Shown one piece after another: positions 41,121-61,715 of a DNA stretch of 64,000 bases; within the stretch, counting starts at the first letter, position 1; every line of letters starts with the position of its first letter. The position numbers and the translations under genes were made by a program. Source of the DNA: an uncultured Arcobacter sp. (lineage in GTDB: Bacteria; Campylobacterota; Campylobacteria; Campylobacterales; Arcobacteraceae). Under the pieces are notes generated by a model, which saw only the letters and a program-made list of their open reading frames with translations, did not search any database and was not told the DNA's origin. The stretch covers positions 28,485-92,484 of the forward strand of contig CAYZST010000002.1 of assembly GCA_964480765.1 (NCBI GenBank), in the 5' to 3' direction.

Positions 41121-42614
41121 TTAGATAGTTCTCCATTTAGCTGGTCCAGTTGTATGAATTGAGTTTCCTTCAGTATCAACTGCAACTGTAACAGGCATAT
41201 CTTTTACTTCAAATTCATAGATTGCTTCCATTCCCATCTCTTCAAATGCAAGAATTTTTGCATTTTTAATTGATTGAGAAATTAGATATGCTGCTCCACC
41301 AGTAGCAATTAGATAAGTTGATTTATACTCTTTGATTAAATCAATAGTTGGCTGTTTTCTTTCTGCCTTACCAATCATACCCATAATACCAATTTCCATC
41401 ATATCTTTAGTAAATTTATCCATTCTTGTAGAGGTAGTTGGTCCAGCAGGTCCTACAACTTCATCTCTTACTGGGTCAACAGGTCCAACATAGTAGATAA
41501 ATCTATCTTTTAAATCAACTCCATTTGGAAGTGGTTTTCCAGCATTTTTATATTCAACAATTTTTTTATGGGCAGCATCTCTTGCTGTTAAAATTTTTCC
41601 AGATAATAGTAGAGTATCTCCAGATTTAAACTCTTGAAGTTTCTGTTTTGTTAAATCTTCAATATTTACTCTTTTAATTGTATCCATTGGAAGTTCAATA
41701 TCAGGCCAAATATCTAAATCTGGTTTTTCAAATTTGGCAGAACCATTTCCATCTAATTCAAAATGAATATGTCTAGTTGCTGCACAGTTGGGAATCATTG
41801 CAACTGGTAATGAAGCAGCATGACATGGGTAATCTAAGATTTTAACATCAAGAACAGTTGTTAAACCACCTAGACCTTGTGCTCCAATTCCAATTTTATT
41901 AATATCTTCATATAATCTAAGTCTCAACTCCTCTAGAGCATTTTTTGGACCTCTTTGTTTTAATTCATGTATATCAACATGCCCCATTAAAGCTTCTTTT
42001 GCAAGTAACATTGATTTTTCTGGATTTCCACCAATACCAATTCCTAGAATTCCAGGGGGACACCATCCAGCACCCATTTGCTCAACATTTGACATTACCC
42101 AATCATAAATTGAATCAGATGGATTTAATACTGCAAATTTAGATTTGTTTTCAGAACCTCCACCTTTAGCTGCAACAGTGATATCAAGCTTATCAGAGTT
42201 TGTATCTATTGAGTAATGAATTACAGCAGGTGTATTATTTTTAGTGTTTTTTCTCTCTCCTGCTGGGTCAGCAACAACTGAAAATCTTAATTTATTATCT
42301 GGATCAGTGTATCCTTTAGCAACACCTTCATTTAAAATATCTTCAATAGGTCTTGAAATATCAAGGTTAGCCTTTAAACCTACTTTTACAAATAGATTTA
42401 TACTTCCAGTATCTTGACAAAGTGGTCTATGACCCATTGCACACATTTTTGAGTTTATTAAAATTTGTCCAATTGCATTTTTTGCTGATTCAGACTCCTC
42501 TTTTTCATAAGCTTCAACCATTCCCTTTACGAAATCTTCAGGATGATAAAAAGAGATATATTGACATGCATCTGCTATGCTATTTATAATATCTTGTTCT
42601 GTGATTTTTCCCAT
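41121..42614 (-). CDS. Class I (Fe-S dependent) fumarate hydratase, fused alpha+beta domains
   Basis: 497 aa. 'CQDTGS' and the Cys ligands of Fe-S hydro-lyases. The C-terminal beta-domain carries 'GPTTSTRMD'. Confidence 0.85.
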   Translation of the reverse strand: MGKITEQDIINSIADACQYISFYHPEDFVKGMVEAYEKEESESAKNAIGQILINSKMCAMGHRPLCQDTGSINLFVKVGLKANLDISRPIEDILNEGVAKGYTDPDNKLRFSVVADPAGERKNTKNNTPAVIHYSIDTNSDKLDITVAAKGGGSENKSKFAVLNPSDSIYDWVMSNVEQMGAGWCPPGILGIGIGGNPEKSMLLAKEALMGHVDIHELKQRGPKNALEELRLRLYEDINKIGIGAQGLGGLTTVLDVKILDYPCHAASLPVAMIPNCAATRHIHFELDGNGSAKFEKPDLDIWPDIELPMDTIKRVNIEDLTKQKLQEFKSGDTLLLSGKILTARDAAHKKIVEYKNAGKPLPNGVDLKDRFIYYVGPVDPVRDEVVGPAGPTTSTRMDKFTKDMMEIGIMGMIGKAERKQPTIDLIKEYKSTYLIATGGAAYLISQSIKNAKILAFEEMGMEAIYEFEVKDMPVTVAVDTEGNSIHTTGPAKWRTI

Positions 42615-42808
42615 TATTACTTTCCTTTTATATAATAAGCTTGGAATAATTATATCTTATATCTAATAATTAAAAAGAATTAAAAAGCTTGTTTAAGTAA
42701 TTATAAAATGCCAAAGTTACGCAATTTCACATATTTTAAATGCTTACATAAAATATTTCTAGAAAAGTTAATTTCTTTTAAATTTATAAAATTGTTTTAC
42801 TAATAAAC

Positions 42809-44098
42809 TTAAAAATTTTCAACAATTTCTTTGATGATTTTACCAATTTTTTCAACTGATTTTATCTCAACTTTTTCTCTATTTGAGTGAGGATTAAAAA
42901 TATTTGGACCAATAGAAGCTATTTTCATGTCAGGAAATTTTTCTTTGAAAATTGCACATTCAAGTCCTGCATGAATTGCTTTTAACGAAGCTTTTTTATT
43001 GTACTTTTTATAGATCTTTAAAATATTATTTGTAAACTCATTTATATCTGGTTTCCAAGCGGGATATTTTCCATTTGTTGTGACTTCAAAACCATAATTT
43101 TCAAGTAAAGAAATAGTCTCTTTTTTTAGTCTAAATAACTCTTCATTTAACATTGATCTGGCACTAAGTTCAATATTAATTTCATCAATTGAAGTAGAGA
43201 TTTTAGCTAAATTAATTGAGTTTAATACAACATTTAAATCCTTATTATATGCTCTAACACCATGTGCAAATGAATAAATAAAATCCACTATATTACTATT
43301 CCAAATATTTAAATGTTCAGTTTTAGTATCAATTTTTGTTATACAGATATTTTTATGTGAAATATTTTCTGGATAATTTTTAAAGGCTACTATTGCTTTA
43401 ACATTAACAGGAATTGAATTTACTCTTTCTCCACCATTAATGTCAAGTAATAAACCACTATTTTCCTTTATTAGTTGAGCGATTAATTTTATTGCATTTG
43501 GTATATTAAGATGAATATTAACACCACTATGACCACCTGGAAGATTTCCAATTGATACCTCATATAATTTATAGTTTTCAGTGTTCTTTATAATCTGCTT
43601 TTTGTTATTTTTTCCAAAAATATCTATTCCACCTGCACAACCAATACAAACCTCTCCTTCCTCTTCACTATCTATATTTAGCATATATTTAGCATTTAGT
43701 TTATGTTCTAAATTATTAGCACCTATTAAGCCTATCTCTTCATCACTTGTAAATAGAAACTCAATATCATAGTTCTTTGTCATAAGTGATAGCATATATG
43801 AGCATCCTATACCATTGTCTGCACCAAGAGTTGAATTTTTTGCTTCTAAAAAGCCATCTACTTCAATTATCTCAGGAATAGTTCCATCAATTAAACAAAC
43901 AATATCATAATGGTTTTGGATACATAAATTGGCTTTTGAATCTCTTTTTTTACATAAAATATTATTGTAATTATCTATAAGACATTCATAATTATATTTA
44001 GAAGAAAAATCTTTCATGTAAGCAATAAAAGGTTCGTAAGTTCCACTACATCTTGGGATTGTAGTGATTTCTTTAAAAATCTCTATGACATTATTCAC
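42809..44098 (-). CDS. M20-family dipeptidase, PepD (aminoacyl-histidine dipeptidase)-like
   Basis: 429 aa. 'LGADNGIG', 'TSDEEIGLIGA' and 'PGGHSG' motifs. Confidence 0.75.
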   Translation of the reverse strand: MNNVIEIFKEITTIPRCSGTYEPFIAYMKDFSSKYNYECLIDNYNNILCKKRDSKANLCIQNHYDIVCLIDGTIPEIIEVDGFLEAKNSTLGADNGIGCSYMLSLMTKNYDIEFLFTSDEEIGLIGANNLEHKLNAKYMLNIDSEEEGEVCIGCAGGIDIFGKNNKKQIIKNTENYKLYEVSIGNLPGGHSGVNIHLNIPNAIKLIAQLIKENSGLLLDINGGERVNSIPVNVKAIVAFKNYPENISHKNICITKIDTKTEHLNIWNSNIVDFIYSFAHGVRAYNKDLNVVLNSINLAKISTSIDEINIELSARSMLNEELFRLKKETISLLENYGFEVTTNGKYPAWKPDINEFTNNILKIYKKYNKKASLKAIHAGLECAIFKEKFPDMKIASIGPNIFNPHSNREKVEIKSVEKIGKIIKEIVENF

Positions 44099-44221
44099 TT
44101 ATTTCCTTTTTGGCTTGATTATAACTAATTATATTTAAAAATAGTAATAAGAAATAATAAAATTTAAGCTTTATATAAACTCTTTTAATTATTATAAATA
44201 TATTAAATACAGGGGATTTAG

Positions 44222-44785
44222 ATGATTATAGATTATAAAGATATAAGCGACTTAAATAGGTATAAAATTATGTCTGATACTGTTGTTCCAAGACCAATTG
44301 CGTGGATTGTAACGGAGGATGAGGGTATTATTAATGCAGCACCATTTTCCTATTTTGTTCCTTTATCTTCAAATCCAGCAGTTGTAATTGTATCTATTGG
44401 AGAAAAAGAAGATGGGATACCTAAAGATTCATTATATAATATATTAAAACATAAAAAAGCAACTATTTGTTTTGTAAATAAAGATAATACTGAGCAAGTT
44501 AAACAGTGTGCAAATATGCTTCATAAATATGAGAGTGAGATTGAAAAATATGAAATTAGTGTACAAAAACCATTAGAGGAATTTCCTCCAATGATTAGCT
44601 CTACTCAAACTGCATTATTTTGTGAGTTTTATCAAAAGGTTGATATTCCAGGGAAAACTACACCTATAATATTAGAAGTAAAAAAGCAGTTTATTGAGGA
44701 TGGAAGATTAGATGAAAGATTTCATGTCCATGTAGAAAATATAGGTAGAAGTGGAGCTTTTTTCAAAGCAATGGTGGACTTATAA
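44222..44785 (+). CDS. Flavin reductase-like (FMN-binding split-barrel) protein
   Basis: 187 aa. 'VVPRPIAWIVT…NAAPFSYF' is typical of flavin reductase-domain proteins. Confidence 0.75.
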   Translation: MIIDYKDISDLNRYKIMSDTVVPRPIAWIVTEDEGIINAAPFSYFVPLSSNPAVVIVSIGEKEDGIPKDSLYNILKHKKATICFVNKDNTEQVKQCANMLHKYESEIEKYEISVQKPLEEFPPMISSTQTALFCEFYQKVDIPGKTTPIILEVKKQFIEDGRLDERFHVHVENIGRSGAFFKAMVDL

Positions 44786-44855
44786 GTTTTAAAAAAAGTA
44801 TAAGATGCTTGTTTTATTATTAAAATAGAAGAAGAGTAAAGAACTTTTCTTCTAT

Positions 44856-45698
44856 TTATTCTACAATTTGATGAACTTTACTACATTGAGATAGATGTAA
44901 ATCCATTCCAGACATATCTTGCATAATATCCTCAAAAGAGTGAACGTGAGCGTTATATACATATACAAAAATTTCATCCCCTTTTTCTAAGAAGTTATGT
45001 TTACCAAAATCTGTATATGCGGTTGCTCCAGCGGCTATTAATAATCCTTTATGTTTATTAATATCTTTTATAAAAGGAGGTAGCTCTTCTAAAGGTCCAC
45101 AATCCTCTTGTTCATTAAATTTTTCAATCATCCAATCTTTTAATTGTTCAAAAAAATATGAATATGATTTAACCGCACTAATAGTACCGTAATCTTTTAA
45201 AATACCATCTCTTCTAACAAAAGAAGCAATATGATATTTCCCAATGTTTCCATCTTCTGTAAATTTATCAATTTCAATAAACTCAGATGCAATTCCTTTT
45301 GAATATGCTCCCCAGTTTTTCTTTGTACTTAATTTATTTCCATCTTGAACTCTATTTGAACAATCATTAAATGCTCCAAAGTATCTAGGTTTTAAATCAA
45401 TTAATTTCTTGTTCTCATATACAAAATCACAAAGTAGAGCAACTTCTGCTTCAACTTGCAGTTGTTTCATATTATTAAGATTAATTTTATCCATACAAAC
45501 TGGAAAATCACCTAGAAATGAATTATGGTTTGGAATGTAAAAAGGGAATAACCCTTTAGGTGCATCTTTATCTTTTGTTTGAATTACTGAAAATTCATCT
45601 GCCTCACCAGCTTCACCTAAGTGGTTTGCAAAATTTCCTGCAACACCAAAACCTAAATAATCTTTTAACTCTTCTAAATCTATATGTATTTTATTCAT
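44856..45698 (-). CDS. Hypothetical protein, possibly remote fumarylacetoacetate-hydrolase (FAH)-fold
   Basis: 280-aa clean ORF. Weak FAH-like pattern by eye ('GVAGNFANHL', 'VEAEVALL', 'LIAAGATAYTDFG…GDEI'). Confidence 0.4.
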   Translation of the reverse strand: MNKIHIDLEELKDYLGFGVAGNFANHLGEAGEADEFSVIQTKDKDAPKGLFPFYIPNHNSFLGDFPVCMDKINLNNMKQLQVEAEVALLCDFVYENKKLIDLKPRYFGAFNDCSNRVQDGNKLSTKKNWGAYSKGIASEFIEIDKFTEDGNIGKYHIASFVRRDGILKDYGTISAVKSYSYFFEQLKDWMIEKFNEQEDCGPLEELPPFIKDINKHKGLLIAAGATAYTDFGKHNFLEKGDEIFVYVYNAHVHSFEDIMQDMSGMDLHLSQCSKVHQIVE

Positions 45699-45939
45699 TT
45701 TTTAATACCTTTTTATATTTTTTCTAACAATAAGTTTTCTATTTTTCGATTATTTAAATTGTGAGGAATATGGTTGAAATTTACATTTTGAAGATTTTTA
45801 TATTAAGTTTATCGTTCGCGTGTAAAAACTACTCTCACAATTTTTTTTTACTTTGACCACCTTGACTACTCCAAGGAGAATGGCAAGTTTAGTTGTGACA
45901 GTTATAATTAAGTCTTTCATTTTCTTCCCTTCTAATAAC

Positions 45940-45969
45940 TTAGAAAAAGAGAATAACCTCTTTTTCTAA
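45940..45969. repeat. Perfect 12-bp inverted repeat TTAGAAAAAGAG-N6-CTCTTTTTCTAA
   Basis: Arms at 45940-45951 and 45958-45969, 36 nt downstream of the stop of the 46005 gene on the minus strand. No adjacent U-tract in either orientation. Confidence 0.6.
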
Positions 45970-46004
45970 AAGTTTGCTTTAAAACTCTTACTTAATCTCT
46001 CTAA

Positions 46005-46988
46005 TTAAGCAAAAAATCTTTTTTCTGTCTCTTCCATTAATGTTGCACCAGAGTATTTAGCTCTTTGTACTAACTCCCAAAAGTATCTGTATGTTGCTCT
46101 ATCGTGTAGCTCACCATCATACTGAATTGGTCCCCAATCTGCATCTTGTGCTTTAATTAGGATATTTTGAGCTGCTTCTAACTCTGTAAAATCTGGTTTC
46201 ATAGCATCAACGATTGCTTGTACTTGTGTTGGGTAAATAGACCACATTCTCATAAATCCGAACTCATTTCTTGCTCTTTCAGCATCTTTGTAAGTTTGGT
46301 ATGGATTTTTAAGGTCTAATGTAACGTTATGTGCTGGAATAACATGGTTTTGTATAGCTGCTTGAGCAACTTTTGCTTTTGCAGCACCAATTAATCTGTG
46401 ATCAAATTGACCAGGAGATCTCATATTAATTGCAGGAATTGCACCTTGGTATCCAGATACAAAGTCCATTAAACCGAAATCTAATACTTGTAACCATGGT
46501 AATGTAGCAATTTTTTCTACATCTTGTAATGCTCCATGAGTTTCAATAAGTACGTGAATTGGAATCTCTCTACTAATTCCAGCCTCTTTAGCTACTTTTT
46601 GAATATACTCAATTTGAGTTTTGGCATCTTCATAACAAGTTGATTTTGGTAATGTAATATATGCTAGTTTTTCACCAGCACCTGGAACTAAGATATCAAC
46701 GTCTTGTCTCCAGTCTGGGTGAGAGTGGTCGTGGATTCTTGTTCCAGCCATTGCATATGGATTATCCTCAGAGTTAACAACTCTAACAATCATCTCAGCA
46801 TGTTCAACCTCTTTACCAGTCTCAGCTCCATCTTCACAATCACATGTTATATCAAAAACTGGTCCAAGTTTTCTTTGCATATCAAAACCTTTTTTAATTA
46901 GTTTTTCACTTCCTGCAAAGTGCTCACAAGTTGGAATAATTGGTAATGATTTTCCAGATTCAAATAGTGCTTCATTTGGGTGTGTCAT
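46005..46988 (-). CDS. HpcH/HpaI / CitE-like acyl-CoA lyase (malyl-CoA/citramalyl-CoA lyase family)
   Basis: 327 aa with family motifs 'DCEDG', 'ITLPK', 'LIETHGA', 'FGLMDFVSG' and 'YDGELHD'. Confidence 0.7.
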   Translation of the reverse strand: MTHPNEALFESGKSLPIIPTCEHFAGSEKLIKKGFDMQRKLGPVFDITCDCEDGAETGKEVEHAEMIVRVVNSEDNPYAMAGTRIHDHSHPDWRQDVDILVPGAGEKLAYITLPKSTCYEDAKTQIEYIQKVAKEAGISREIPIHVLIETHGALQDVEKIATLPWLQVLDFGLMDFVSGYQGAIPAINMRSPGQFDHRLIGAAKAKVAQAAIQNHVIPAHNVTLDLKNPYQTYKDAERARNEFGFMRMWSIYPTQVQAIVDAMKPDFTELEAAQNILIKAQDADWGPIQYDGELHDRATYRYFWELVQRAKYSGATLMEETEKRFFA

Positions 46989-47010
46989 ATTAATATCCTT
47001 TTTCTAAAAT

Positions 47011-48069
47011 TTATTTTTTTGTTTTTCTTTTTGGGATTACTACTGTGTAATCTAAATCAAGTACAACATTTTTCAAGTACTTACCATTTTCATCTTTTGG
47101 TGACTCAATCTCATCAGGTTTTTGATTTTTAATTGCGATTGTTCTAAGTCTTAATAGACCAATATCTTCTCTTTTATGATTAATTACTTCTAATACTTCA
47201 GTATATGCATAGATTGTATCTCCTGCATATGTTGGATTAGCATGTGCACCAGAGTTAATGGCATACATCCATTGTGCATTTTGTAAACCATTAAATGAGA
47301 TTGCTCTTGCAATAGAGATTACTACTCCACCGTACATTAATCTCTCTTTCATAGGAGTAGATTTCATCATATGGTCATTAAAGTGAACCTTAGCATTATT
47401 TTGATAAAGCTTAGTTGCTAAAGTGTGATCACTATTATCAATTGTAATACCTTCTGGATGATTTAATCTTTCACCTTCTTTATAATCTTCAAAGAAAAAT
47501 TTTCCACCAGAGGCATCTGTGTCAACACATTTAATCTCTGGAATATTAATTTCATCTAAGATAGGAGTTGATTCTGCAAAAGTAGGAATCTGTTTAATTC
47601 CTGTTAAACTCTCTTTATTCTTTTTATGAACCATAACCCATCTTTTGAAGTTAAGTACTTCATCTCCATTCTGATTTACACCAATAGAGTGAACATATAC
47701 AACTCCTGATTTTCCATTTGAGTTCTCTTTTAATCCAATTATTGTTGAAGTCATACAGACTGTATCTTCAACATATACTGGATTAGGAAAGGCAATTTCT
47801 GCATAACCTAAGTTAGCAATTGCATTTAATGAAATATCTTGTACCGATTTGCCAAAAGTTAAATGAAACATCAAAAGATCATCAATTGGTCTTTTATTAT
47901 ATCCCATCTCTTTTGCAATAACATCTGATGAGTGCAGTGCAAATCTAGAACCAGTGAAGGCGATGTATAAAGATACATCTCCATCAGTGATAGTTCTAGG
48001 AAGAGGGTGTACTATTTTTTGCCCAATTGTAAAATCTTCAAAAAAGTTTCCAATATTTATTTTAGACAC
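47011..48069 (-). CDS. MaoC-like double hotdog enoyl-CoA hydratase, mesaconyl-CoA hydratase (Mch)-like
   Basis: 352 aa. 'GNFFEDFTIGQ', 'PRTITDGDV' and 'LNAIANLGYA' match my recollection of 2-methylfumaryl-CoA hydratases. The size fits a fused double hotdog. Confidence 0.7.
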   Translation of the reverse strand: MSKINIGNFFEDFTIGQKIVHPLPRTITDGDVSLYIAFTGSRFALHSSDVIAKEMGYNKRPIDDLLMFHLTFGKSVQDISLNAIANLGYAEIAFPNPVYVEDTVCMTSTIIGLKENSNGKSGVVYVHSIGVNQNGDEVLNFKRWVMVHKKNKESLTGIKQIPTFAESTPILDEINIPEIKCVDTDASGGKFFFEDYKEGERLNHPEGITIDNSDHTLATKLYQNNAKVHFNDHMMKSTPMKERLMYGGVVISIARAISFNGLQNAQWMYAINSGAHANPTYAGDTIYAYTEVLEVINHKREDIGLLRLRTIAIKNQKPDEIESPKDENGKYLKNVVLDLDYTVVIPKRKTKK

Positions 48070-48078
48070 AAGTTCTCC

Positions 48079-50598
48079 TTATTTATTAAATAGGTTTTGA
48101 CCTAAAGATTTATAAGTATCATATAGAGTAATCATTTTCTTAGCCCAAACGATTCTACATCTATCAACTAGTTTACCTTTAAATGAGATAACCTCTTTAC
48201 CTTCTTTTTCAGCCTCTTCATACTTGTTAATCATCTCTTCATACTCTTGAACTTCTTTTTGCTTTGGAGTAAAGATATCATTAATATACTCAACTTGAAT
48301 TGGATGAATAAGTGCTTTACCATCAAATCCAATGTTATATGCATCTTTTGTTGAGTCTTCACAAGCGAATTCATCTTCAACATCATAATGAGGTCCATCA
48401 ATTACTGTTTTACCATATGCTTTTGCAGATAAAGCAATTCTTGCAAGATAGTTAAACATGGCTTTAGAACCTTTTTTAATATCAATTTGAAGTCTATTTG
48501 CTAAGTTATTTGAACCAACAACAACAACTTCAAGTTTTGAGCTTGATGCACAAATATCTGGCGAGTTTAAAATTGCTAATGGAGTTTCAATCATTACCAT
48601 CATAGTAAGTTCAGGGTCTAATTCCATTAAGATTTTTTCAGCTTCAAGAATCTGCTCTTTTGTTTCAATAAGAGAGAATAAAATTCCATCAATATCTAAT
48701 TCACGAGCTAGTTCCATATCTTTTTTGAAGTCTTCACTTCCTAAGTTATTTACTCTTAAGATTCTCTCTGACTCACCAAATTTTGCACCATCCTCTTTGT
48801 ATACTTCTCTAATAACATTTCTTGCAGCTTGTTTTTGCTCTTGTAAAATTGCTTCAAGATCAAATACAACTGTATCAGCAAGAATTGTTTTAGATTTTTG
48901 AACATATTTTTTATTATAAGCAGGAACAAATAACATTGATCTTCTTGCTTTATACTTAATAATCTCTTCACCACTTACATTTGAATTATAAATATCGTGT
49001 AAATTTTTAACTAACTGTTTTCTTAATACTTTTCCATTCTTTGTTCTTGGGTAATCTTTCATACCAAAGATTGTTTTTGGTGCTTTATATTTTGCTAAGT
49101 TAGCTTGAGAATATTCAAGAATCTCTTGTTCTTGTTTTTCACTTAACTCTTCATGTCCAACAACAGCAATTGCAACGATTACTTTATCTTTTTCTATTTC
49201 TAAACCAAATGCAACACAATCAGCTACATCTTTGTGAGTTTTTACAACTCTTTCAATTTCATGTGGAGATACTCTAAATCCAAAGGTATTAATGATGTCA
49301 TCTTTTCTACCAATAAACCAAATATATCCATCTTTATCTCTTTTTGCATAATCTCCTGTAAAGAACCAACCATCATGTCTAGCCTTTGCAGTCTCTTCTT
49401 CAAGTTGCCAGTACTCTAAAAATAGTCCTGGATCATCCTCTCCAATACAAATCATACCTTCTTCTTCTAAACCAACTTCTTCTAAAGTTTCAGGATTTAA
49501 AAGTTTTACAATATGTCCTGGTTGAACAAATCCAGCAGAACCAGGTCTAATTGGGTTATTTTTAGAGTGAGAAATATAATATGAACATTCAGACATACCA
49601 ATTGCTTCAAAGATATCTTGTTTGAATCTATCTCTCCATAATCCAATCATCTCATCAGATAAATGTTCTCCTGCTGACATACAATATCTTAATGATGGAC
49701 AATCATTAATTGTAAATTCAGTCTTTTGAATAATTTGTCTATAAATTGTTGGTACTCCAATAAATATTGTACAATTATGTTTTTTAATTAAATTAACCCA
49801 CGTTGAAGCATCATTTGCACCTTCATATGCAATTACTGTGTGACCATTAAATAATGGATCCATTAAAGCTGAACCTAATACATACGTCCAGTTAAATTTA
49901 CCAGAGTGCATAATTCTATCATTTTGTTTAAAATCAAACCAATATTCTGTTGCTGGTGTTCTACCAATTAAAGATCTATGTGAGTGTAATACACCTTTAG
50001 GGTATCCTGTTGTTCCAGAAGTATATACTAAATATGCAGGCTCACCAGATTTTGATGGATAATGATTGGGTGTTTTATCACTCTGTTCTAAAATTTCATT
50101 TAATGCAAATACTTGCATTCCTTTTGGAACATTATATTCTTCTACACTATCAGTTCCAGCAACAATAATAGTTTTTAAATTATCTAAATTCTCTAAGTAT
50201 GGAGTTAAGTTCTCATACATAGTTGCAGATAACACAATTGCTCTTGCTTGAGAATCTTCTGCAAGATATTTCACTTCAGAACCTGATAATAAAGTTGATG
50301 TAGGTACAGCAATAATACCAGCTTTAATTGCTCCAAAGAACGAAATAGGATATGCAAGAGAGTTTTTTAAACAAACTAATACTCTATCTCTAGCTTCAAA
50401 ACCTAAGCTTTGTAAAAAATTACAAACTTGGTCTGATTTTTCAGCTAAATCTTTATAAGAAATTTCGTCAGTACCAAGCTTATCATCTTCGATAATCATT
50501 GCAGTGTTATTCTCTTTATCTGTTCCAACATGAATAGATGTACAAGCAACACCAATATTTAAAAATTCAGGTACTTCAATTTTTACATTTGGACTCAT
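48079..50598 (-). CDS. Fusion protein: AMP-forming acyl-CoA ligase (about 540 aa) plus C-terminal CitE/HpcH-like domain (about 290 aa)
   Basis: 'YLVYTSGTTGYPKGVLHSH', 'TGDYAKRDKDGYIWFIGRKDD' and 'PRTKNGKV' are adenylate-forming motifs. They are followed by 'RRSMLFVPA', 'FDLEAIL', 'MIETPLA' and 'FDGKALIHPIQV'. The reading frame is continuous over 839 codons. Confidence 0.85.
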   Translation of the reverse strand: MSPNVKIEVPEFLNIGVACTSIHVGTDKENNTAMIIEDDKLGTDEISYKDLAEKSDQVCNFLQSLGFEARDRVLVCLKNSLAYPISFFGAIKAGIIAVPTSTLLSGSEVKYLAEDSQARAIVLSATMYENLTPYLENLDNLKTIIVAGTDSVEEYNVPKGMQVFALNEILEQSDKTPNHYPSKSGEPAYLVYTSGTTGYPKGVLHSHRSLIGRTPATEYWFDFKQNDRIMHSGKFNWTYVLGSALMDPLFNGHTVIAYEGANDASTWVNLIKKHNCTIFIGVPTIYRQIIQKTEFTINDCPSLRYCMSAGEHLSDEMIGLWRDRFKQDIFEAIGMSECSYYISHSKNNPIRPGSAGFVQPGHIVKLLNPETLEEVGLEEEGMICIGEDDPGLFLEYWQLEEETAKARHDGWFFTGDYAKRDKDGYIWFIGRKDDIINTFGFRVSPHEIERVVKTHKDVADCVAFGLEIEKDKVIVAIAVVGHEELSEKQEQEILEYSQANLAKYKAPKTIFGMKDYPRTKNGKVLRKQLVKNLHDIYNSNVSGEEIIKYKARRSMLFVPAYNKKYVQKSKTILADTVVFDLEAILQEQKQAARNVIREVYKEDGAKFGESERILRVNNLGSEDFKKDMELARELDIDGILFSLIETKEQILEAEKILMELDPELTMMVMIETPLAILNSPDICASSSKLEVVVVGSNNLANRLQIDIKKGSKAMFNYLARIALSAKAYGKTVIDGPHYDVEDEFACEDSTKDAYNIGFDGKALIHPIQVEYINDIFTPKQKEVQEYEEMINKYEEAEKEGKEVISFKGKLVDRCRIVWAKKMITLYDTYKSLGQNLFNK

Positions 50599-50613
50599 AA
50601 TTCAACTCTCCTC

Positions 50614-51744
50614 TTAGATTAGACCAAATGGCCAGTTTTCTTTAAATGTATGTAATGGCATTTTATTTAATACAGAAATTGCAAACTCATAATCTTCTGG
50701 CTCTAAACTATTAAGTGCATGTGCTCTTAAGATGTTTTGTAATGATTTACCAAACATTGGTGGATCTAACATCTCTCCATCATATCTAATAGCACCAGAT
50801 AATAATGCATCAGCATCAATAGCTGCTTTTAAAATTTCAACATCTCTTGCAATCTCTTTAGGAGATGGTGTAAATGCAACTTTACAAACATTAATATGGT
50901 TAGGTGTAATAACTTGTTTTCCAGTAAGACCCATTGCATACTCTCTTTGTGCGTGTGCATAAACATGTCTTGAAGCATCATCACCGTGTAAATCTAACCA
51001 TCTTCTAATATCTTTTTTCTCAACACAAGAATCAGGTAATGAATTTGGAGTAAGTAAGACTTCAACTCCACCAATAACACCTTTACCTTTAACTCTTGCT
51101 TCCATTGTAAGAATATTAAAAAATGTTTCTAATTCATCAATCCAACCCTCAGGAGTAATTTTATACGCCATTGCTTTAGAAAAATCATGAATACCAAATA
51201 CAACATGTTGTACTGTTGAATGGCTCATTAATTTATCAGCAATTTGTAAAGATTTAGGATGTTCAATAATTGGTTGAATTTGTAGGTTTGCACCAATTGA
51301 AACTAACCAAGAAGACAAATCTCTAATTTCAGCAGAACCATAAACTTCCCCAGCTTTAGCTAAAACAATTGCATCAATATATTTGTGAATCTGTTTTAAC
51401 ATTTTTAAATCTTCTTCATACTCTGCTGTTCTAAATGGATTAATTCTTACAGCAATCTGAAAGTTTCTTTCTGGAAACTTTGGTAACTCTTGAATTAAAA
51501 GCTCTCTTGACATAGCTTTTTGCCTACATCCATCTTCAAGGTCAAATAAAACAGTATGAGCTTTTGTTTTGTAAGCATGCTTTTGTAATCTATACTTAGC
51601 TTGCTCCATTGTCTCATAAGTTCCATCTAATGGATTGAACTTTATTGGTGGATAATAAATCTGAATTCCAGGCCATTTCCCACCAAGTACTGGATTTAAA
51701 TCGTCGTTAGCAGTTAATTTTGATAAATCTACAAAAGATGTCAT
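50614..51744 (-). CDS. HpcH/HpaI / CitE-like acyl-CoA lyase with N-terminal extension
   Basis: 376 aa with 'LFDLEDG', 'VLAKAG', 'IIEHPKS', 'FGIHDFSKA' and 'YDGEMLDPP'. First gene of the minus-strand operon. Confidence 0.7.
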   Translation of the reverse strand: MTSFVDLSKLTANDDLNPVLGGKWPGIQIYYPPIKFNPLDGTYETMEQAKYRLQKHAYKTKAHTVLFDLEDGCRQKAMSRELLIQELPKFPERNFQIAVRINPFRTAEYEEDLKMLKQIHKYIDAIVLAKAGEVYGSAEIRDLSSWLVSIGANLQIQPIIEHPKSLQIADKLMSHSTVQHVVFGIHDFSKAMAYKITPEGWIDELETFFNILTMEARVKGKGVIGGVEVLLTPNSLPDSCVEKKDIRRWLDLHGDDASRHVYAHAQREYAMGLTGKQVITPNHINVCKVAFTPSPKEIARDVEILKAAIDADALLSGAIRYDGEMLDPPMFGKSLQNILRAHALNSLEPEDYEFAISVLNKMPLHTFKENWPFGLI

Positions 51745-51996
51745 AGTTTTTACCTTGTTTTTTATATATTTTTTGTTTCAGACATTTTTCTGATGATAGA
51801 ATTAATCCATAGTTAAAATAAACTAAAACATAAATCAGTATATTAATTAAAAAAATAAGAAAATTTTAATAAAATTCAAAAATACCATAAAATAGGGCTT
51901 TTCGTAAATGAGTAAATGTCAGTTTCATAATATGAGAAAAATTACTCTAATATTCTTAATATCTAAAATAAAAATTTGAAAATTTTTTAAAAAGAA

Positions 51997-52020
51997 TCAC
52001 CTTTTTTTAGATAAAGGTGA
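51997..52020. promoter_or_regulatory. Inverted repeat TCACCTTT-N8-AAAGGTGA in the divergent IclR/lyase-operon control region
   Basis: Perfect 8-bp arms at 51997-52004 and 52013-52020, 87 nt upstream of the IclR gene start. Confidence 0.35.
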
Positions 52021-52106
52021 AACAGGAAGCTTTAAATTTGCAAAAAATCTTATTTAGTAAAAAAATGGTAATATATGAAAAATAAAATATTAAAGAGTTT
52101 ATTTAA

Positions 52107-52847
52107 GTGCAAATACAAAGTCCAAATAAATCATTTTCAAAAGGTTTACAAGTATTAAAAGAGATAATGAAATCTGCTAAACCATTAACAGCAAATGTTT
52201 TATGTCAAAAATTAAGTATAGATAAAAGCACTATGTCAAGATTAATTACAACTTTGATGAGTGAGGAGTTTATAGAATATAAAGGGGATTCAAAAGAGAT
52301 TATACTTAGTGATATTTTAAGAAAAATTGTACATAAAGATGATAGAGAGAAAATTGTAGAAAAAACAAGATCTCTTTTAGATGAGATTTTTCTTATTACT
52401 AATGAAGCTTCATATTTAGGTATTTTAGATAATAACTTAACCTTGTATTTAAATCAGGTTGATAAATCAAATAGGGTGATTAAAACAAGAGATTCAATTG
52501 GACTTCATTCTCCATTACATACTAATGCTTTTGGTAAAATTTTAATTACTTTTAGTAATAAAGTTGATATTGAAAAATTAGATTTAAAAAAGTATACCTC
52601 AAATACTATTACAAGTGTTACAAAATTACAAAAAGAGATTGAGTTAATTAAACAAAGAGGTTATGCAATTGATAGTGAAGAGTATGAATTTGGACTAAAA
52701 TCAGTTGCTGTGCCATATTTTAACAAGCAAAATAAATTTGTTGGAACAGTTGGAATTTCTGGTTTGTCAGTTAGATTAGAGAATGAATCTTTACATAAAT
52801 TTGGACAAGATATTTTTAAATTAGTAAACACATTTATGACAAAGTAG
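52107..52847 (+). CDS. IclR-family transcriptional regulator
   Basis: 246 aa starting at GTG. N-terminal wHTH 'KGLQVLKEI…LTANVLCQKLSIDKSTMSRLITTL'. The C-terminal effector domain carries 'GYAIDSEEYEFGLKSVAVP'. Confidence 0.85.
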   Translation: MQIQSPNKSFSKGLQVLKEIMKSAKPLTANVLCQKLSIDKSTMSRLITTLMSEEFIEYKGDSKEIILSDILRKIVHKDDREKIVEKTRSLLDEIFLITNEASYLGILDNNLTLYLNQVDKSNRVIKTRDSIGLHSPLHTNAFGKILITFSNKVDIEKLDLKKYTSNTITSVTKLQKEIELIKQRGYAIDSEEYEFGLKSVAVPYFNKQNKFVGTVGISGLSVRLENESLHKFGQDIFKLVNTFMTK

Positions 52848-52850: not shown

Positions 52851-53756
52851 CTATTTTAGAGTCTCTTTCTTATTTGATAAATATTCATGGGCTAAATATG
52901 AACTTCTTGCATATGGAGTAGAGTGTACAAAACTAAATCCTAAATCAAGGGCAAGCTCTTTATATTTTGCAAACTGCTTAGGTGTAACAAACTCTTTAAC
53001 TTTTTCATAATCTCCAGATGGGGCTAAATATTGACCAATACTTAAAAACTCACAACCAACTTCCCTTAAATCTTTAAATACTTGAATCATCTCCTCTTCA
53101 GTTTCACCAAGACCAACCATTAATGCAGATTTTGTTTTAACTTTATCTCCTCCAAGCTCTTTTAATCTTCTTAATACTTCAAGTGATCTTTTGTATGAAG
53201 CATTTCTTCTAATATGGTATAAAGATGGAACTGTTTCTACATTGTGTCCAATAATTACAGCACCACTATCAACAACTTTTTGTAATGATTCATCATTCCC
53301 TTGAAAATCTGGAATAAGAATTTCAACTTGTGTTTCAGGAGATTTTTCTAAAATATTTTTAGTAACTCTAAAAAACTGAGATGCACCACCATCTTTTAAA
53401 TCATCTCTAGCAGGACTAGTAATAACAACAAATTTAAGACCAAGTTTAATTACTGACTGAGTAACTCCATCAATCTCTGCTAAATCAACCTCTGTTGGTT
53501 TTCCTGTGTGAACATTACAATATGTACATCTTCTTGTACAGATATTACCAAGAATTAAAAAGGTTGCATTTTTCTTTGCATAACATTCAGAAATATTTGG
53601 ACATTTAGCTTCTTGACAAATTGTATGTAATCCATGTTCTCCTAATAAATCTTCCATCTCTTTTTGTGCATGGGGAACTAATTTTTTTCTTAACCATTCA
53701 GGTTTTTTAAAATCTACTTTTTTCTTTGTAGTAAATTTAGTTTCTACTATAGTCAT
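52851..53756 (-). CDS. lipA: Lipoyl synthase
   Basis: 'CQEAKCPNISEC' and the radical-SAM 'CTRRCTYCNV' motifs. 301 aa. Confidence 0.95.
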   Translation of the reverse strand: MTIVETKFTTKKKVDFKKPEWLRKKLVPHAQKEMEDLLGEHGLHTICQEAKCPNISECYAKKNATFLILGNICTRRCTYCNVHTGKPTEVDLAEIDGVTQSVIKLGLKFVVITSPARDDLKDGGASQFFRVTKNILEKSPETQVEILIPDFQGNDESLQKVVDSGAVIIGHNVETVPSLYHIRRNASYKRSLEVLRRLKELGGDKVKTKSALMVGLGETEEEMIQVFKDLREVGCEFLSIGQYLAPSGDYEKVKEFVTPKQFAKYKELALDLGFSFVHSTPYARSSYLAHEYLSNKKETLK

Positions 53757-54474
53757 ATTTATCCTTTAGTAAAGAGCTTTTGGTCTCTTCTTCATCTTTT
53801 GTTAACTGTGAAAGTTCAATTTCTACATTAAAACACTGTTTAAAAGAGTCAATAAGTCCTTTTATTGTCTCTTCAAAGTTTATATCTATTTTCATATCTT
53901 CTAAAGAGTTTCCAAACATTTCTTTATCATTTGTTTTAAAAACAGGTATTGAACCATGTTGAAAAATTGCTTTTTTTGTTCTTCTTTGTGCATTTCCACC
54001 AATTTTTTTACTATTTATTAATATATCATAAGCTTCAAAACCTATTTGACAAAACTCACTTTTAGACAATTGGATATTCTCATCATCTTTTGCATAACAA
54101 ACATATAAGCCAAGATTTTTATAAAAATTAAGTATAAATTGACATATCTTTTCATAAGATTTTTTTATACTTAAACCTTTTAAAATTTCACTTGGAATAA
54201 TAATAGAATAGGATACATCGTGTCCATGAAATAGTATCCCTCCACCTGTAATTCTTTTTGCAGCATTTTTATTTGGATTCTTTATAAAAGGATAAGTTAT
54301 AAAATCTTGTGAAATACCTATAGTAATAGAGTCATCCTCCCAAGTATACAATCTTAAAATTGCATAATCCCCTTGATTATAATTTTTTAATAGGGCTTCA
54401 TCTATTGCCATATTTTCTTTTGCTGATTTTTTATCAGTTATAATAACTCTAAACTTACTTTTAGTATCAATCAA
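53737..54474 (-). CDS. Lipoate-protein ligase / octanoyltransferase family protein (LplA/LipM-like)
   Basis: BPL_LplA_LipB-type motifs 'RITGGGILFHG' and 'KIGGNAQRR'. Overlaps lipA by 20 nt. Confidence 0.75.
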   Translation of the reverse strand: MIDTKSKFRVIITDKKSAKENMAIDEALLKNYNQGDYAILRLYTWEDDSITIGISQDFITYPFIKNPNKNAAKRITGGGILFHGHDVSYSIIIPSEILKGLSIKKSYEKICQFILNFYKNLGLYVCYAKDDENIQLSKSEFCQIGFEAYDILINSKKIGGNAQRRTKKAIFQHGSIPVFKTNDKEMFGNSLEDMKIDINFEETIKGLIDSFKQCFNVEIELSQLTKDEEETKSSLLKDKYDYSRN

Positions 54475-54653
54475 TTATAATAAATCCTATTATTGAGTTT
54501 GTTTAAAAAAACTTATGTTATTAAAATATCGCGGATATGATTAATAACCTTAAATTGTCGCGTTTTTTCATTATAATTTCATTTTTATATAACAAAACTT
54601 AGAAAAAAATATTAATTTTTAAAAAACAAAATAATTTAAGATAATTAAAGTAT

Positions 54654-54733
54654 CATATGTTCACAATTCGTTTTTATGGTATCACAGGATACACATTCTT
54701 TACATAGTGAACATATGTTCAGTTGTTTTTATG
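54654..54733. promoter_or_regulatory. Array of dyad and direct repeats upstream of aceE (ATATGTTCA core x3)
   Basis: CATATGTTCAC (54654-54664) is the reverse complement of GTGAACATATG (54707-54717). There is a perfect 12-bp palindrome GAACATATGTTC (54709-54720). Direct repeats are ATATGTTCACAATTCGTTTTTATGG (54655-54679) and ATATGTTCAGTTGTTTTTATGG (54712-54733). A nested hairpin is GTATC-ACAG-GATAC (54679-54692). Confidence 0.6.
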
Positions 54734-54779
54734 GGAATAATAAGAAGAAATTAAACAAATTTTAAGCAAGGAAGTATGA

Positions 54780-57452: not shown

Positions 57453-57459
57453 GGAGTAA

Positions 57460-59190: not shown

Positions 59191-59191
59191 G

Positions 59192-60634
59192 GTGTCTATT
59201 ATGAATGAAATAAAAGGGCAAGTATTAGTAATTGGAGCAGGACCTGGTGGATATTCTGCTGCTTTTAGATGTGCAGACTTAGGTTTAGATACAGTATTAG
59301 TTGAGAGACACCCAACTTTAGGTGGTGTATGTTTAAATGTTGGTTGTATCCCTTCAAAAGCATTACTACATGTTGCAAAAGTGATTGAAGAGGCTGAACA
59401 TATTGAACATGCAGGTATTAAATTTTCTAAACCAGAAATTGATTTACCAAGTGTTGCAGCATATAAATCAGGAGTTGTAAAAAGACTTACTGACGGTTTA
59501 GCAGCAATGGCTAAAATGAGAAAAGTAACTATTATTCAAGGTATTGCAAAATTTGTTGATGAATACTCAGTTATTGTTGAGCATACTGATAAAAAGAGTG
59601 AATCAACTAAGGTTATTTTTGATAGTTGTATTATTGCAGCAGGAAGTCAGAGTTCAAAAATGTCTTTTATTCCTCATGAAGACCCAAGAATTTGGGATTC
59701 AACAAATGCCTTAGAAGTTAAAGAAGTTCCAAAAAGATTACTTGTAATGGGTGGTGGTATTATTGGACTTGAAATGGGTACAGTATATCAAAAACTAGGT
59801 TCTAAGGTGGATGTTGTTGTTAGAGGACCACAAGTTATGACTGGTACAGATAAAGATATTGTAAAGGTTTATACAAAAGCAAATGAGAAGAGATTTAACT
59901 TTATGTTTAAAACTCAAACTCAGGCTATTATTCCTAAACAAGATGGTATCTATGTAGAGTTTAAAGGAGATAATGCACCTGAGCCTCAAACCTATGATGC
60001 GGTATTAGTTGCAATGGGTAGAACCCCAAATGGTTTAAAATTAGGTTTAGAAAGTACTGGTGTAGAAGTAGATGAGTATGGATTTATCTTAGTTGATAAT
60101 CAAATGAGAACAAAAGTTCCTCATATTTTTGCTATAGGTGATATTATTGGTGGACCAATGTTAGCACATAAAGCAGTTCATGAAGGTCATGTTGCAGCAG
60201 AGGTTATCGCAGGACATAAAGTTTTCTTTGAGCCAAAGCAAATTCCAGGAATTGCATATACTTTCCCAGAAATTGCAACAGCGGGTCTTAGTGAAATTGA
60301 AGCAAAGGAAGCGGGAATTGATTACGAAGTAGCAACTTTTCCTTGGTCAGCTTCTGGTAGAGCTTTAGCAGCAGATGTTGCTGGTGCTGGTATGACAAAA
60401 TTAATTTTTGATAAAGAGAGTCATCAATTAATAGGTGGAGCAATTGTTGGAGATAATGCAGGTGAATTATTAGGTGAAATTTCCCTTGCATTAGAGATGG
60501 ATTGTGATGCAGAGGATATTGGATTAACAATTCATGCTCACCCAACACTACATGAATCCGTAGGTATGTGTGCGGAAATTTTCCATGGAAGTATTACAGA
60601 TTTACCAAATCCAAAAGCTATAAAGAAGAAGTAA
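59192..60634 (+). CDS. lpdA: Dihydrolipoyl dehydrogenase E3
   Basis: 'GAGPGGY', redox-active 'GGVCLNVGCIPSK' and C-terminal 'HAHPTLHE'. The start is GTG 59192 or ATG 59201. Confidence 0.95.
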   Translation: MSIMNEIKGQVLVIGAGPGGYSAAFRCADLGLDTVLVERHPTLGGVCLNVGCIPSKALLHVAKVIEEAEHIEHAGIKFSKPEIDLPSVAAYKSGVVKRLTDGLAAMAKMRKVTIIQGIAKFVDEYSVIVEHTDKKSESTKVIFDSCIIAAGSQSSKMSFIPHEDPRIWDSTNALEVKEVPKRLLVMGGGIIGLEMGTVYQKLGSKVDVVVRGPQVMTGTDKDIVKVYTKANEKRFNFMFKTQTQAIIPKQDGIYVEFKGDNAPEPQTYDAVLVAMGRTPNGLKLGLESTGVEVDEYGFILVDNQMRTKVPHIFAIGDIIGGPMLAHKAVHEGHVAAEVIAGHKVFFEPKQIPGIAYTFPEIATAGLSEIEAKEAGIDYEVATFPWSASGRALAADVAGAGMTKLIFDKESHQLIGGAIVGDNAGELLGEISLALEMDCDAEDIGLTIHAHPTLHESVGMCAEIFHGSITDLPNPKAIKKK

Positions 60635-61628: not shown

Positions 61629-61715
61629 ACAAAAACTTTTCTGAGCTAATATATAAAAATATATTATTTTATTAATTATATGATTATAGCCAAAAAATTA
61701 AATTAAAAGAAATAA

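Follow-up and report, generated by a model that had tools for sequence, protein, structure and literature searches.

A putative mesaconyl-CoA operon of Arcobacteraceae is one version of a gene module conserved across several phyla and often linked to the methylcitrate cycle

What is the metabolic task of a compact operon that joins three CitE-like lyase domains to a MaoC-type hydratase and an AMP-forming acyl-coenzyme A (CoA) ligase? The operon in question lies on the minus strand of a 64-kb stretch of DNA from an uncultured Arcobacter sp. (assembly GCA_964480765.1, contig CAYZST010000002.1; this whole stretch of 64,000 nucleotides is called the window below), where its four genes and a divergent IclR-family regulator gene on the plus strand occupy positions 46005-52847. 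We found that it is one version of a module that is conserved across several phyla and is often linked to the methylcitrate cycle. Judged by the families of its proteins, it appears to be a transferase-free, ligase-driven variant of the mesaconyl-CoA/beta-methylmalyl-CoA pathways. We lean, tentatively and with slightly less than even confidence, towards a citramalate-cycle-like reading, in which the module converts pyruvate and acetyl-CoA to propionyl-CoA and glyoxylate, in this presumed direction, and is coupled to the methylcitrate cycle. The cluster itself is already known, having been predicted in 2007 and listed in a cluster of the Methylophilaceae; new here are the cross-phylum module of five components, its methylcitrate linkage and the rarity of its ligase-CitE fusion, together with three predictions, namely a degenerate, thioesterase-like CitE domain, a DUF5718 protein assigned to the fumarylacetoacetate hydrolase (FAH) fold and a candidate operator.

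The layout given in the original prediction holds to the nucleotide. The minus-strand open reading frames (ORFs) are, in the order of transcription, a first CitE-like protein, here lyase A (50614-51744, 376 aa), a ligase-CitE fusion (48079-50598, 839 aa), a hydratase (47011-48069, 352 aa, with a GTG start) and a second CitE-like protein, here lyase D (46005-46988, 327 aa), separated by gaps of 15, 9 and 22 nt, and the IclR gene (52107-52847) diverges from lyase A across a spacer of 362 bp. All the sequence motifs that had been quoted are present in the operon proteins, and hidden Markov model (HMM) searches bear out the families that had been named, as HpcH_HpaI, AMP-binding, MaoC and IclR domains all score above the Pfam gathering cut-offs, which we used for domain calls. 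Equivalog calls were made at the NCBIfam cut-offs, none of which is reached by any of the four operon proteins or by the IclR protein.

The hydratase is the one member whose family similarity provides a firm functional anchor for the module. It matches MC_hydratase (PF19315) at 77.1 bits, against a cut-off of 26.5 bits, and MaoC_dehydratas at 55.7 bits, and over residues 2-348, that is, full-length, it matches the Protein Data Bank (PDB) entries 4e3e (359 bits) and 8hgn, "Beta-methylmalyl-CoA dehydratase" (333 bits), in keeping with the Mch-like hydratase that had been proposed; it scores below the haloarchaeal equivalog model (77.5 vs 560). Its identity as the double-hotdog mesaconyl-C1-CoA hydratase/beta-methylmalyl-CoA dehydratase, Mch, is strongly supported, with mesaconyl-C1-CoA <-> beta-methylmalyl-CoA as the predicted activity, and this identity would fix these two CoA esters as intermediates. 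The substrates of all the other enzymes, and the direction of flux, we infer.

We then consider the CitE-like proteins against what is conserved in their superfamily. Across CitE-like proteins and malate synthases Arg76 and Asp299 (MCL_R numbering) are conserved throughout with the exception of one clade, that of the Rhodobacter sphaeroides malyl-CoA thioesterase, in which Glu replaces Asp299, and the Mg ligands Glu141/Asp168 and the DLED residues Glu44/Asp45 are absolutely conserved (PMC3832036). Lyases A and D carry the equivalents of the full catalytic set (Glu44/Asp45, Arg76, Glu141/Asp168, Asp299), invariant or nearly so. In lyase A, a very divergent CitE-like protein that matches HpcH_HpaI (PF03328) at 32.1 bits (cut-off 25) and corresponds to cyl3 of Methylophilaceae and to AB1917, the catalytic Arg and the motifs FDLEDG, IIEHP, FGIHDF and GEMLDPP show essentially no variation among 49 members, apart from IVEHP in one of them. 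Its best NCBIfam matches are CitE (57 bits) and RipC_Ccl (53 bits), both far under their cut-offs, and it matches CLYBL at 43.9 bits. Lyase D (HpcH_HpaI 35.1 bits, cut-off 25), which by gene order is cyl1 and corresponds to AB1920, has catalytic residues nearly invariant in 81 sequences and belongs with 3qqw (472 bits, 63% identity) and 3r4i (335 bits, 46% identity), structural-genomics proteins labelled just "CitE-like" by Zarzycki & Kerfeld 2013 (PMC3832036). Among characterised enzymes it comes closest to 4l9y, the malyl-CoA/beta-methylmalyl-CoA lyase of R. sphaeroides, with only 54.7 bits. Neither lyase is an orthologue of a characterised enzyme, since both lie less than 60 bits from them. 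We propose that lyase A may be an (S)-citramalyl-CoA lyase or a citramalate synthase, and lyase D a beta-methylmalyl-CoA, possibly also malyl-CoA, lyase.

The claim of three lyase-type domains stands as far as family membership goes, all three scoring above the PF03328 cut-off, but the third, which is fused to the ligase and called citE_f here (48079..48963, minus strand, fusion residues ~546-839, HpcH_HpaI 114.2 bits), is non-canonical. Its best matches are the Methylobacterium extorquens malyl-CoA lyase (89.9 bits) and CLYBL (84.7 bits). In the window it has DLEA for DLED, so that the Asp45 equivalent is Ala, and GSNNL for G-x-x-D, with Asn at the Asp168 equivalent, and it keeps the Arg, the Glu and the lid Asp of the catalytic set. 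Across the 61 sequences of the citE_f family, which evolves faster than the other module components (31-40% identity, as compared with 58-70%), the Asp45 position is never Asp in the common variants (DLDP, DLES, DLEA, DLAP, DLNP). In the fused forms the Mg-binding Asp is replaced by N, K or T and Asp299 is kept (KLVDRC in the window), whereas the forms encoded by separate genes keep the Mg-binding Asp and mostly have Glu at the Asp299 position (RLVEHH, RLIEPS), which is the signature of the malyl-CoA thioesterase clade (PMC3832036). From these residues we take citE_f to be other than a canonical C-C lyase; the most plausible activity for it is that of an Mcl2-like thioesterase.

The ligase half of the fusion (48964..50598, minus strand, residues 1 to ~545) matches AMP-binding at 240.9 and AMP-binding_C at 42.3 bits, which places it in the ANL superfamily of AMP-forming ligases. 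Its top NCBIfam matches are generic (PRK06187 at 307.7 bits vs 476, MbcS, benzoate-CoA ligase), with no cut-off reached, and we propose it as a mesaconate-CoA ligase. Methylophilaceae literature gives the corresponding gene the name prpE; we reject a PrpE identity for the window's ligase, PrpE not being among its top 25 NCBIfam matches. The fusion is at least 79% identical and of the same length in Arcobacter, Halarcobacter, Malaciobacter, Aliarcobacter and Poseidonibacter. When 1.84 billion representative proteins were searched exhaustively with HMMER, with the whole fusion as the query, adenylation domains of nonribosomal peptide synthetases swamped the result, which is informative just on the rarity of the fusion: the search returned one other full-length fused representative (P0241), and the fused architecture is therefore rare.

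How much of this was known before? The original prediction had taken the route to be undescribed in Campylobacterota, which is wrong as regards prediction, because Miller et al. 2007 (PLoS One) described the orthologous cluster ab1917-ab1921 of Arcobacter butzleri RM4018 and made an in-silico proposal for it (PMC2147049). They reported two CitE-like proteins, an acyl-CoA synthetase that carries a CitE domain at its C terminus and an enoyl-CoA hydratase for which they proposed the interconversion of mesaconyl-CoA and beta-methylmalyl-CoA, with the adjacent anaerobic fumarase as a possible mesaconase, and proposed a route like the citramalate cycle or the 3-hydroxypropionate (3-HP) pathway, in which glyoxylate + propionyl-CoA -> acetyl-CoA + pyruvate (PMC2147049). 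The window's operon shares the gene order and the 839-aa fusion of the A. butzleri cluster (lyase A 89%, ligase 84%, citE_f 70%, Mch 81% and lyase D 94% identical), and both have a class I fumarase and a DUF5718 gene near the operon. Unlike in A. butzleri, three genes (DUF5718, flavin reductase, M20 peptidase) lie between the window's operon and its fumarase, and a divergent IclR gene is present. Our literature searches for experimental work on the Arcobacter cluster, for a natural mesaconate-CoA ligase and for a combination of citramalate and methylcitrate cycles gave nothing beyond the 2007 prediction.

Next, we investigated the distribution of the components. A scan of one genome per species with a profile of the lyase D/3QQW/3R4I family gave at least 588 loci, of which the best 80 were analysed, with components called by blastp of the window proteins against the ORFs of these loci. 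Mch adjoins lyase D in 70/80 loci, a citE_f homologue is found in 61/80, lyase A in 48/80 and the ligase within 10 kb in 33/80, and wherever the ligase was found in the loci analysed lyase A adjoins it. The four-gene architecture is conserved in Arcobacteraceae, and the five components (lyase A, ligase, citE_f, Mch, lyase D) extend beyond that family, occurring together in Methylophaga, Kangiella, Thiobacillus and Gallionellales. In Methylophilaceae loci we found four components, and the ligase has been reported nearby (PMC4109929). The ligase-citE_f fusion is limited to 11 loci, all of them in Arcobacteraceae, two Sulfurospirillum metagenome-assembled genomes (MAGs), one Gammaproteobacteria MAG and one Chromatiales MAG. 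The ligase (~545 aa) and citE_f (~295 aa) are split in Kangiellaceae, Thalassotalea, Thiobacillus, Tepidiphilus, Methylophaga, Gallionellales and Sideroxydans, the two genes being adjacent in the first four of these, and the separate ~545-aa ligases of Kangiella, Methylophaga, Thiobacillus and Gallionellales are 54-64% identical to that of the window.

The same loci show the methylcitrate linkage. We observe prpB + prpC in the same locus in 36/80, sdhA in 24/80, a malic-enzyme-like gene in 26/80 and a GntR regulator gene in 33/80, the last taking the place of IclR in beta- and gammaproteobacterial loci. In Methylophilaceae and Methylophaga, citE_f, Mch and lyase D are directly followed by prpB, prpC and prpD, whose products score above the NCBIfam cut-offs (547 bits against 353, 678 against 550 and 880 against 575, respectively). 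Two adjacency groups recur, namely lyase A + ligase + class I fumarase, and citE_f + Mch + lyase D, often then prpBCD.

Three lineages depart from this pattern. In Kangiellaceae the gene directly after lyase D encodes a thioesterase of hotdog fold (166 aa; TIGR00369, 50.8 bits; L040, 10981-11481, and five other loci) and is present in all six loci with room for it; the enzyme could be an extra CoA-ester hydrolysis step of that lineage. In Cupriavidus (C. lacunae, L079, 3122-11824; also L083) the module is reduced to Mch and lyase D; beside them lie genes for an acyl-CoA dehydrogenase, for a 711-aa acyl-CoA synthetase of the NDP-forming type and for a GntR regulator. The locus looks like a route from methylsuccinate or a similar acid through mesaconyl-CoA to propionyl-CoA + glyoxylate, and in gene order it is similar to Mcd-Mch-Mcl1 of the ethylmalonyl-CoA pathway. 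Leptospiraceae (L022, L025, L031, L058, L082) have lyase D homologues (65-68% identity) that stand alone, as no Mch, ligase or other CitE genes lie within 10 kb and the neighbours, judged by eye, are uninformative; at least one function of the family is therefore not tied to the module.

Among the closest known systems outside the Arcobacteraceae type is the "methylcitric acid cycle" (MCC) cluster of Methylophilaceae, which lists cyl1, maoC, cyl2, cyl3, prpE and fum (Beck et al., PMC4109929). It was highly expressed in situ, its role and metabolites being called unknown (Vorobev et al. 2013, PMC3728764), and in OM43 adjacent HpcH/citrate-lyase and CoA-ligase genes are up-regulated together (PMC5120137). 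Like the window at 41121-51744, it has three CitE-like proteins, a MaoC-type Mch, an AMP-forming ligase and a fumarase, with identities to the window proteins of 58-66% for lyase A, 46-53% for Mch, 62-70% for lyase D and 31-40% for citE_f. It differs from the window in having split ligase and citE_f genes, a GntR regulator, prpBCD, sdhCDAB and a malic-enzyme-like gene.

We also compared the operon with characterised pathways. With the end of the ethylmalonyl-CoA pathway (Mch, Mcl1, Mcl2) and of the haloarchaeal methylaspartate cycle (Mct, Mch, Mcl, malate synthase) the operon shares the Mch family, and it would share a CitE-like beta-methylmalyl-CoA lyase, a CitE-like thioesterase/synthase and the products propionyl-CoA + glyoxylate and then malate. 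Unlike in both of these, mesaconyl-CoA would be made from free mesaconate by an AMP-forming ligase, and propionyl-CoA would go to the methylcitrate cycle and not to B12-dependent carboxylation; in the known pathways mesaconyl-CoA is formed by methylsuccinyl-CoA dehydrogenase or succinyl-CoA:mesaconate CoA-transferase (PMC5592240). That a ligase takes the place of the transferase agrees with the gene content, there being no CoA transferase within +/-10 kb of the operon. CitE-like lyases and MaoC-type hydratases that work on C5-dicarboxyl-CoA esters, citramalyl-CoA being one of the intermediates, are likewise combined in RipABC (Ict/Ich/Ccl) and in the 3-HP bi-cycle, in its second cycle (Mcl, Mch, Mct, Meh). 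The operon's hydratase differs from that of RipABC in being an Mch-type double hotdog (RipB_Ich 114 bits vs a cut-off of 340), and the RipC_Ccl equivalog cut-off of 375 is unreached by lyase A (53), the fused CitE domain (103) and lyase D (37). We reject membership of the itaconate (RipABC) pathway on these scores, far under the cut-offs, and on the missing CoA transferase.

A C5-dicarboxylate route involving glyoxylate, one of the options that had been raised at the outset, remains the most plausible chemistry. In the version that we favour, lyase A would join pyruvate and acetyl-CoA to (S)-citramalyl-CoA or citramalate, a class I fumarase would dehydrate (S)-citramalate to mesaconate, the ligase would activate mesaconate to mesaconyl-C1-CoA, Mch would hydrate this ester to beta-methylmalyl-CoA, and lyase D would cleave the latter to propionyl-CoA + glyoxylate. 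The ATP-dependent ligation and a thioester hydrolysis would stand in for the CoA transferase and give the driving force. The degenerate CitE domain would act as a thioesterase on malyl-CoA, like Mcl2, and/or on citramalyl-CoA, in which case glyoxylate + acetyl-CoA would end as malate. The methylcitrate cycle would turn propionyl-CoA into pyruvate + succinate, with the pyruvate re-entering the module, and the combined cycle would take acetyl-CoA to glyoxylate and malate and need for this neither isocitrate lyase nor 2-oxoglutarate dehydrogenase, and neither carboxylation nor B12. For the second step the candidate fumarase/mesaconase, by family, is the class I (Fe-S) fumarate hydratase encoded at 41121..42614 on the minus strand (Pfam Fumerase and Fumerase_C; NCBIfam ttdA_fumA_fumB and ttdB_fumA_fumB, above cut-off); its counterpart directly follows lyase D in A. 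butzleri (ab1921) and adjoins lyase A in Thiobacillus and Tepidiphilus. The hydration of mesaconate by enzymes of class I is known (PMC4682846). The proposed sequence of reactions is identical to that of the citramalate cycle hypothesised for Rhodospirillum rubrum (Ivanovsky/Berg), for which no genes are assigned to the steps from citramalyl-CoA/citramalate to mesaconate (PMC8307300). Unlike that cycle, which regenerates pyruvate via methylmalonyl-CoA, the window has a candidate gene for each step and the module a methylcitrate-cycle partner.

Several observations fit this reading. The trio citE_f + Mch + lyase D mirrors, as an analogy of gene content, the terminal trio of the ethylmalonyl-CoA pathway (Mcl2-like, Mch, Mcl1-like), and the group lyase A + ligase + fumarase can provide the mesaconyl-CoA, starting from pyruvate + acetyl-CoA and passing through (S)-citramalate and mesaconate. 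A closed cycle, with PrpB passing pyruvate to the module and the module passing propionyl-CoA to PrpC, would explain why prpBC/prpD, sdh and malic-enzyme genes co-cluster with it. As to direction, in the 3-HP bi-cycle the conversion of glyoxylate + propionyl-CoA to pyruvate + acetyl-CoA proceeds without ATP, and the expenditure of a thioester and of ATP would therefore be sensible only for driving the opposite one. Methylophilaceae are without the glyoxylate shunt, the ethylmalonyl-CoA pathway and 2-oxoglutarate dehydrogenase (PMC6794327, PMC4109929), and thus have no obvious source of glyoxylate or propionyl-CoA for a reverse flux. The scheme of Miller et al. 2007 is similar and was reached independently, which we count in favour.

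Other observations weigh against the citramalate-cycle-like reading. The window holds no prp genes over its 64 kb, and blastp with PrpB, PrpC, PrpD, SdhA and SdhB of one of the loci (L019) gave no match in it; the methylcitrate genes of A. butzleri lie elsewhere in its genome (PMC2147049). That species was reported not to grow on acetate, propionate or citrate (PMC2147049), which argues against an acetate-assimilation role there. The substrate assignments other than that of Mch draw on weak homology, with lyases A and D at no more than 57 bits to characterised CitE-like enzymes or curated models and citE_f at 90 bits to the M. extorquens malyl-CoA lyase. The window's citE_f has Asp and not the thioesterase-type Glu, and has lost the Mg-binding Asp, which leaves its chemistry uncertain. 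The operon of Arcobacter nitrofigilis is flanked by a class II Lyase_1 enzyme and not by a class I fumarase. The ligase-CitE fusion, finally, would fit consecutive steps (acid -> acyl-CoA -> cleavage) more naturally, as in a model of reverse flux.

Such a reverse flux is the alternative that survives best, although we consider it rather unlikely. Here, as in the second cycle of the 3-HP bi-cycle, glyoxylate + propionyl-CoA would be converted to pyruvate + acetyl-CoA: lyase D would condense the two, Mch would dehydrate the product, citE_f would hydrolyse mesaconyl-C1-CoA, the fumarase would make (S)-citramalate, the ligase would activate citramalate and lyase A would cleave (S)-citramalyl-CoA, the thioesterase and ligase together replacing Mct and Meh. 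Each component has exactly one role in this scheme, the fused thioesterase and ligase tidily flank the free-acid step, and the best curated matches of lyase A, CitE and RipC/Ccl, are citramalyl-CoA lyase-like. The best, though weak, match of the IclR protein is BhcR, a glyoxylate-responsive regulator, and Chloroflexus runs this reaction sequence in this direction. It is also the direction proposed by Miller et al. (PMC2147049). The scheme would, however, spend a thioester and ATP needlessly, the conversion being exergonic as it is, needs sources of glyoxylate and propionyl-CoA that seem to be missing in Methylophilaceae, and would place two competing propionyl-CoA sinks in one operon where prpBCD co-cluster; moreover one thioesterase would suffice for it, yet Kangiellaceae add a hotdog-type one after lyase D.

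We also regard as unlikely that the module serves the catabolism of exogenous C5 dicarboxylates (mesaconate, citramalate, methylsuccinate, itaconate, beta-methylmalate), which is essentially what had first been suggested for the window. The ligase would activate the imported acid, Mch and lyase D would yield propionyl-CoA + glyoxylate, the methylcitrate cycle would dispose of the propionyl-CoA, and the other CitE proteins would handle glyoxylate or citramalyl-CoA. The chemistry of ligase, Mch and lyase fits, divergent regulator-controlled operons are typical of catabolic loci (IclR here, GntR elsewhere), the acyl-CoA dehydrogenase and NDP-forming synthetase beside Mch-lyase D in Cupriavidus resemble a methylsuccinate-type catabolism, and the Methylophilaceae cluster is induced in situ and by dissolved organic matter (PMC3728764, PMC5120137). 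Against this, the loci examined show no transporter gene conserved alongside the module, the conservation of all three CitE-type proteins and the fumarase is left unexplained, and specialisation on rare C5 diacids is improbable for obligate methylotrophs and chemolithoautotrophs. An ATP-dependent malate or citramalate lyase, in which the fusion would activate L-malate or citramalate and itself cleave the CoA ester (cf. ATP-citrate lyase) while the remaining operon genes serve a side branch, is very improbable: consecutive steps are often joined in fusion proteins, citE_f is closest to malyl-CoA lyase (89.9 bits) and CLYBL (84.7 bits), and a fumarase of class I or class II is always nearby, but the fused domain is without the Mg-binding Asp and the DLED Asp that are absolutely conserved in C-C-cleaving members (PMC3832036), the two parts are separate genes in most taxa, and Mch and two intact lyases would be left roleless.

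If the citramalate-cycle-like reading holds, it opens a wider possibility, towards which we incline less than towards the reading itself and which we think somewhat doubtful, that the module and the methylcitrate cycle together form an unrecognised central pathway for acetyl-CoA oxidation or assimilation and supply the genes of the hypothesised citramalate cycle. Such a pathway would need neither isocitrate lyase, 2-oxoglutarate dehydrogenase, CO2 fixation nor B12, and it would be at work in Arcobacteraceae, Methylophilaceae/OM43, Methylophaga, Thiobacillus, Gallionellaceae and Kangiella. That "obligate" methylotrophs and chemolithoautotrophs carry methylcitrate-cycle clusters and express them strongly would then be accounted for. 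The citramalate-cycle-like reading, if right, would also explain the role of the MCC cluster, a recurrent puzzle in the methylotroph literature (PMC3728764), and would provide a natural mesaconate- or citramalate-CoA ligase; one design in a 2025 rMASP preprint would need a CoA ligase or transferase acting on mesaconyl-CoA (10.1101/2025.11.12.688011). Both the citramalate-cycle genes and the role of the MCC cluster become directly testable through the fusion, the two uncharacterised families of CitE proteins and hosts that can be grown in culture (A. butzleri, A. nitrofigilis, Methylotenera, Kangiella). Should the flux prove to be reverse, or the task to be C5-diacid degradation, the operon would still be a new transferase-free variant of known chemistry, of more modest interest.

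Upon examining the flanks, we observe that the conserved neighbourhood is wider than 46005-52847 and also takes in the class I fumarase, DUF5718 and flavin reductase genes. The order in the window is IclR, the four genes, DUF5718, flavin reductase, M20 peptidase and class I fumarase; in A. butzleri (L004) it is lyase A, fusion, Mch, lyase D, class I fumarase and DUF5718; and in A. nitrofigilis it is IclR, the four genes, DUF5718, a class II Lyase_1/FumaraseC_C protein and flavin reductase. This class II protein (CP001999, L006, 15759-17156; 465 aa) is FumC- or AspA-like and could be a non-orthologous replacement or an unrelated neighbour. The flavin reductase-like gene of the window (44222..44785, plus strand; PF01613, 61.4 bits) has a counterpart near the operon in 6/11 fused-type loci, and in A. 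nitrofigilis, and is roleless in all the schemes proposed.

The DUF5718 protein (44856..45698, minus strand; PF18985, 319.5 bits) is encoded after the operon in the window, in A. butzleri and in A. nitrofigilis, and is found in 6/11 fused-type loci; each of its 120 best homologues comes from Arcobacteraceae or from an unnamed metagenome sequence. Its AF2 model (pLDDT 78.9, pTM 0.81) has 31 top Foldseek PDB matches that all belong to the FAH superfamily (probability 0.97-1.0, TM 0.35-0.5), led by Cg1458, and the triad E83-x-E85...D112 is invariant. No Pfam FAA_hydrolase match appears even at E <= 10, and the membership is therefore structural only. On this model we predict a divergent FAH-fold enzyme, possibly an oxaloacetate or acylpyruvate decarboxylase/hydrolase; that it fills the role, from a C4 acid to pyruvate, of the malic-enzyme-like gene of Methylophilaceae is speculation.

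How is the operon controlled? The IclR protein (52107..52847, plus strand) matches IclR_C at 118.6 and HTH_IclR at 30.5 bits. It is not a BhcR equivalog, because its top NCBIfam match, to BhcR, reaches 123.5 bits, far under the cut-off of 350, and the PcaR and IclR equivalog cut-offs are likewise unreached. An IclR gene is present in 6/11 fused-type loci and there is none in the A. butzleri cluster. Cross-species alignment of the IclR-lyase A spacers of eight loci from Arcobacteraceae and Sulfurospirillum revealed a common block, TTTTCTCAyTATrTGAAACT, and in the window the corresponding imperfect inverted repeat, TTCTCATATTATGAAACT, lies at 51921..51938 (minus strand) within the divergent spacer. 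The pattern built from it matches the window once, with 1 mismatch, vs 0.15 matches expected by chance; it occurs once each, always in the IclR-lyase A spacer, in L006, L007, L008, L010, L012 and L014, and was not found in the other 81 loci, including all those without IclR and A. butzleri. Coordinates of the 18-20-bp repeat are 8680-8697 in L006, 4945-4962 in L008, 4897-4914 in L010, 5034-5051 in L012 and 5066-5083 in L014. A search for repeats within the spacer of the window alone gave only AT-rich chance pairs, and the motif emerged just from the cross-species alignment. The conserved repeat is a good candidate for the IclR operator, through which IclR probably controls the operon.

At the other end, a hairpin with a 12-bp stem (TTAGAAAAAGAG-loop-CTCTTTTTCTAA; 45940..45969, minus strand) lies 36 nt past the lyase D stop and is the probable operon terminator, and a gap of 306 bp separates the operon from DUF5718; hairpin and gap together suggest that the four genes form one transcription unit. 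A promoter/terminator scan of the operon found fewer promoter-like sites than in shuffles and was uninformative apart from this hairpin.

Finally, we consider base composition. The locus had been described as less AT-rich than its surroundings, which is so by a marginal amount, the four operon genes having a GC content of 0.306-0.361 vs a gene mean of 0.292 (standard deviation 0.037; z +0.4 to +1.9), but the GC content at third codon positions (GC3) is ordinary (z -0.4 to +1.65) and the neighbouring pyruvate dehydrogenase (PDH) genes are as GC-rich. There is therefore no sign of foreign origin, and horizontal transfer as judged by GC content, at which the contrast had hinted, is rejected. The lowest GC contents in the window are those of the genes at 17409-20264 and 60663-62465, both on the minus strand (GC 0.22-0.23, z ~ -1.8). 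The window also matches metagenome-assembled contigs such as that of GCA_019826085.1. Directly beside the IclR gene, at 52851-60634, lie lipA, a lipB/LplA-like gene and the genes of the PDH complex (E1 890 aa, E2 576 aa, E3 480 aa). PDH interconverts pyruvate and acetyl-CoA, the two substrates of the proposed route.

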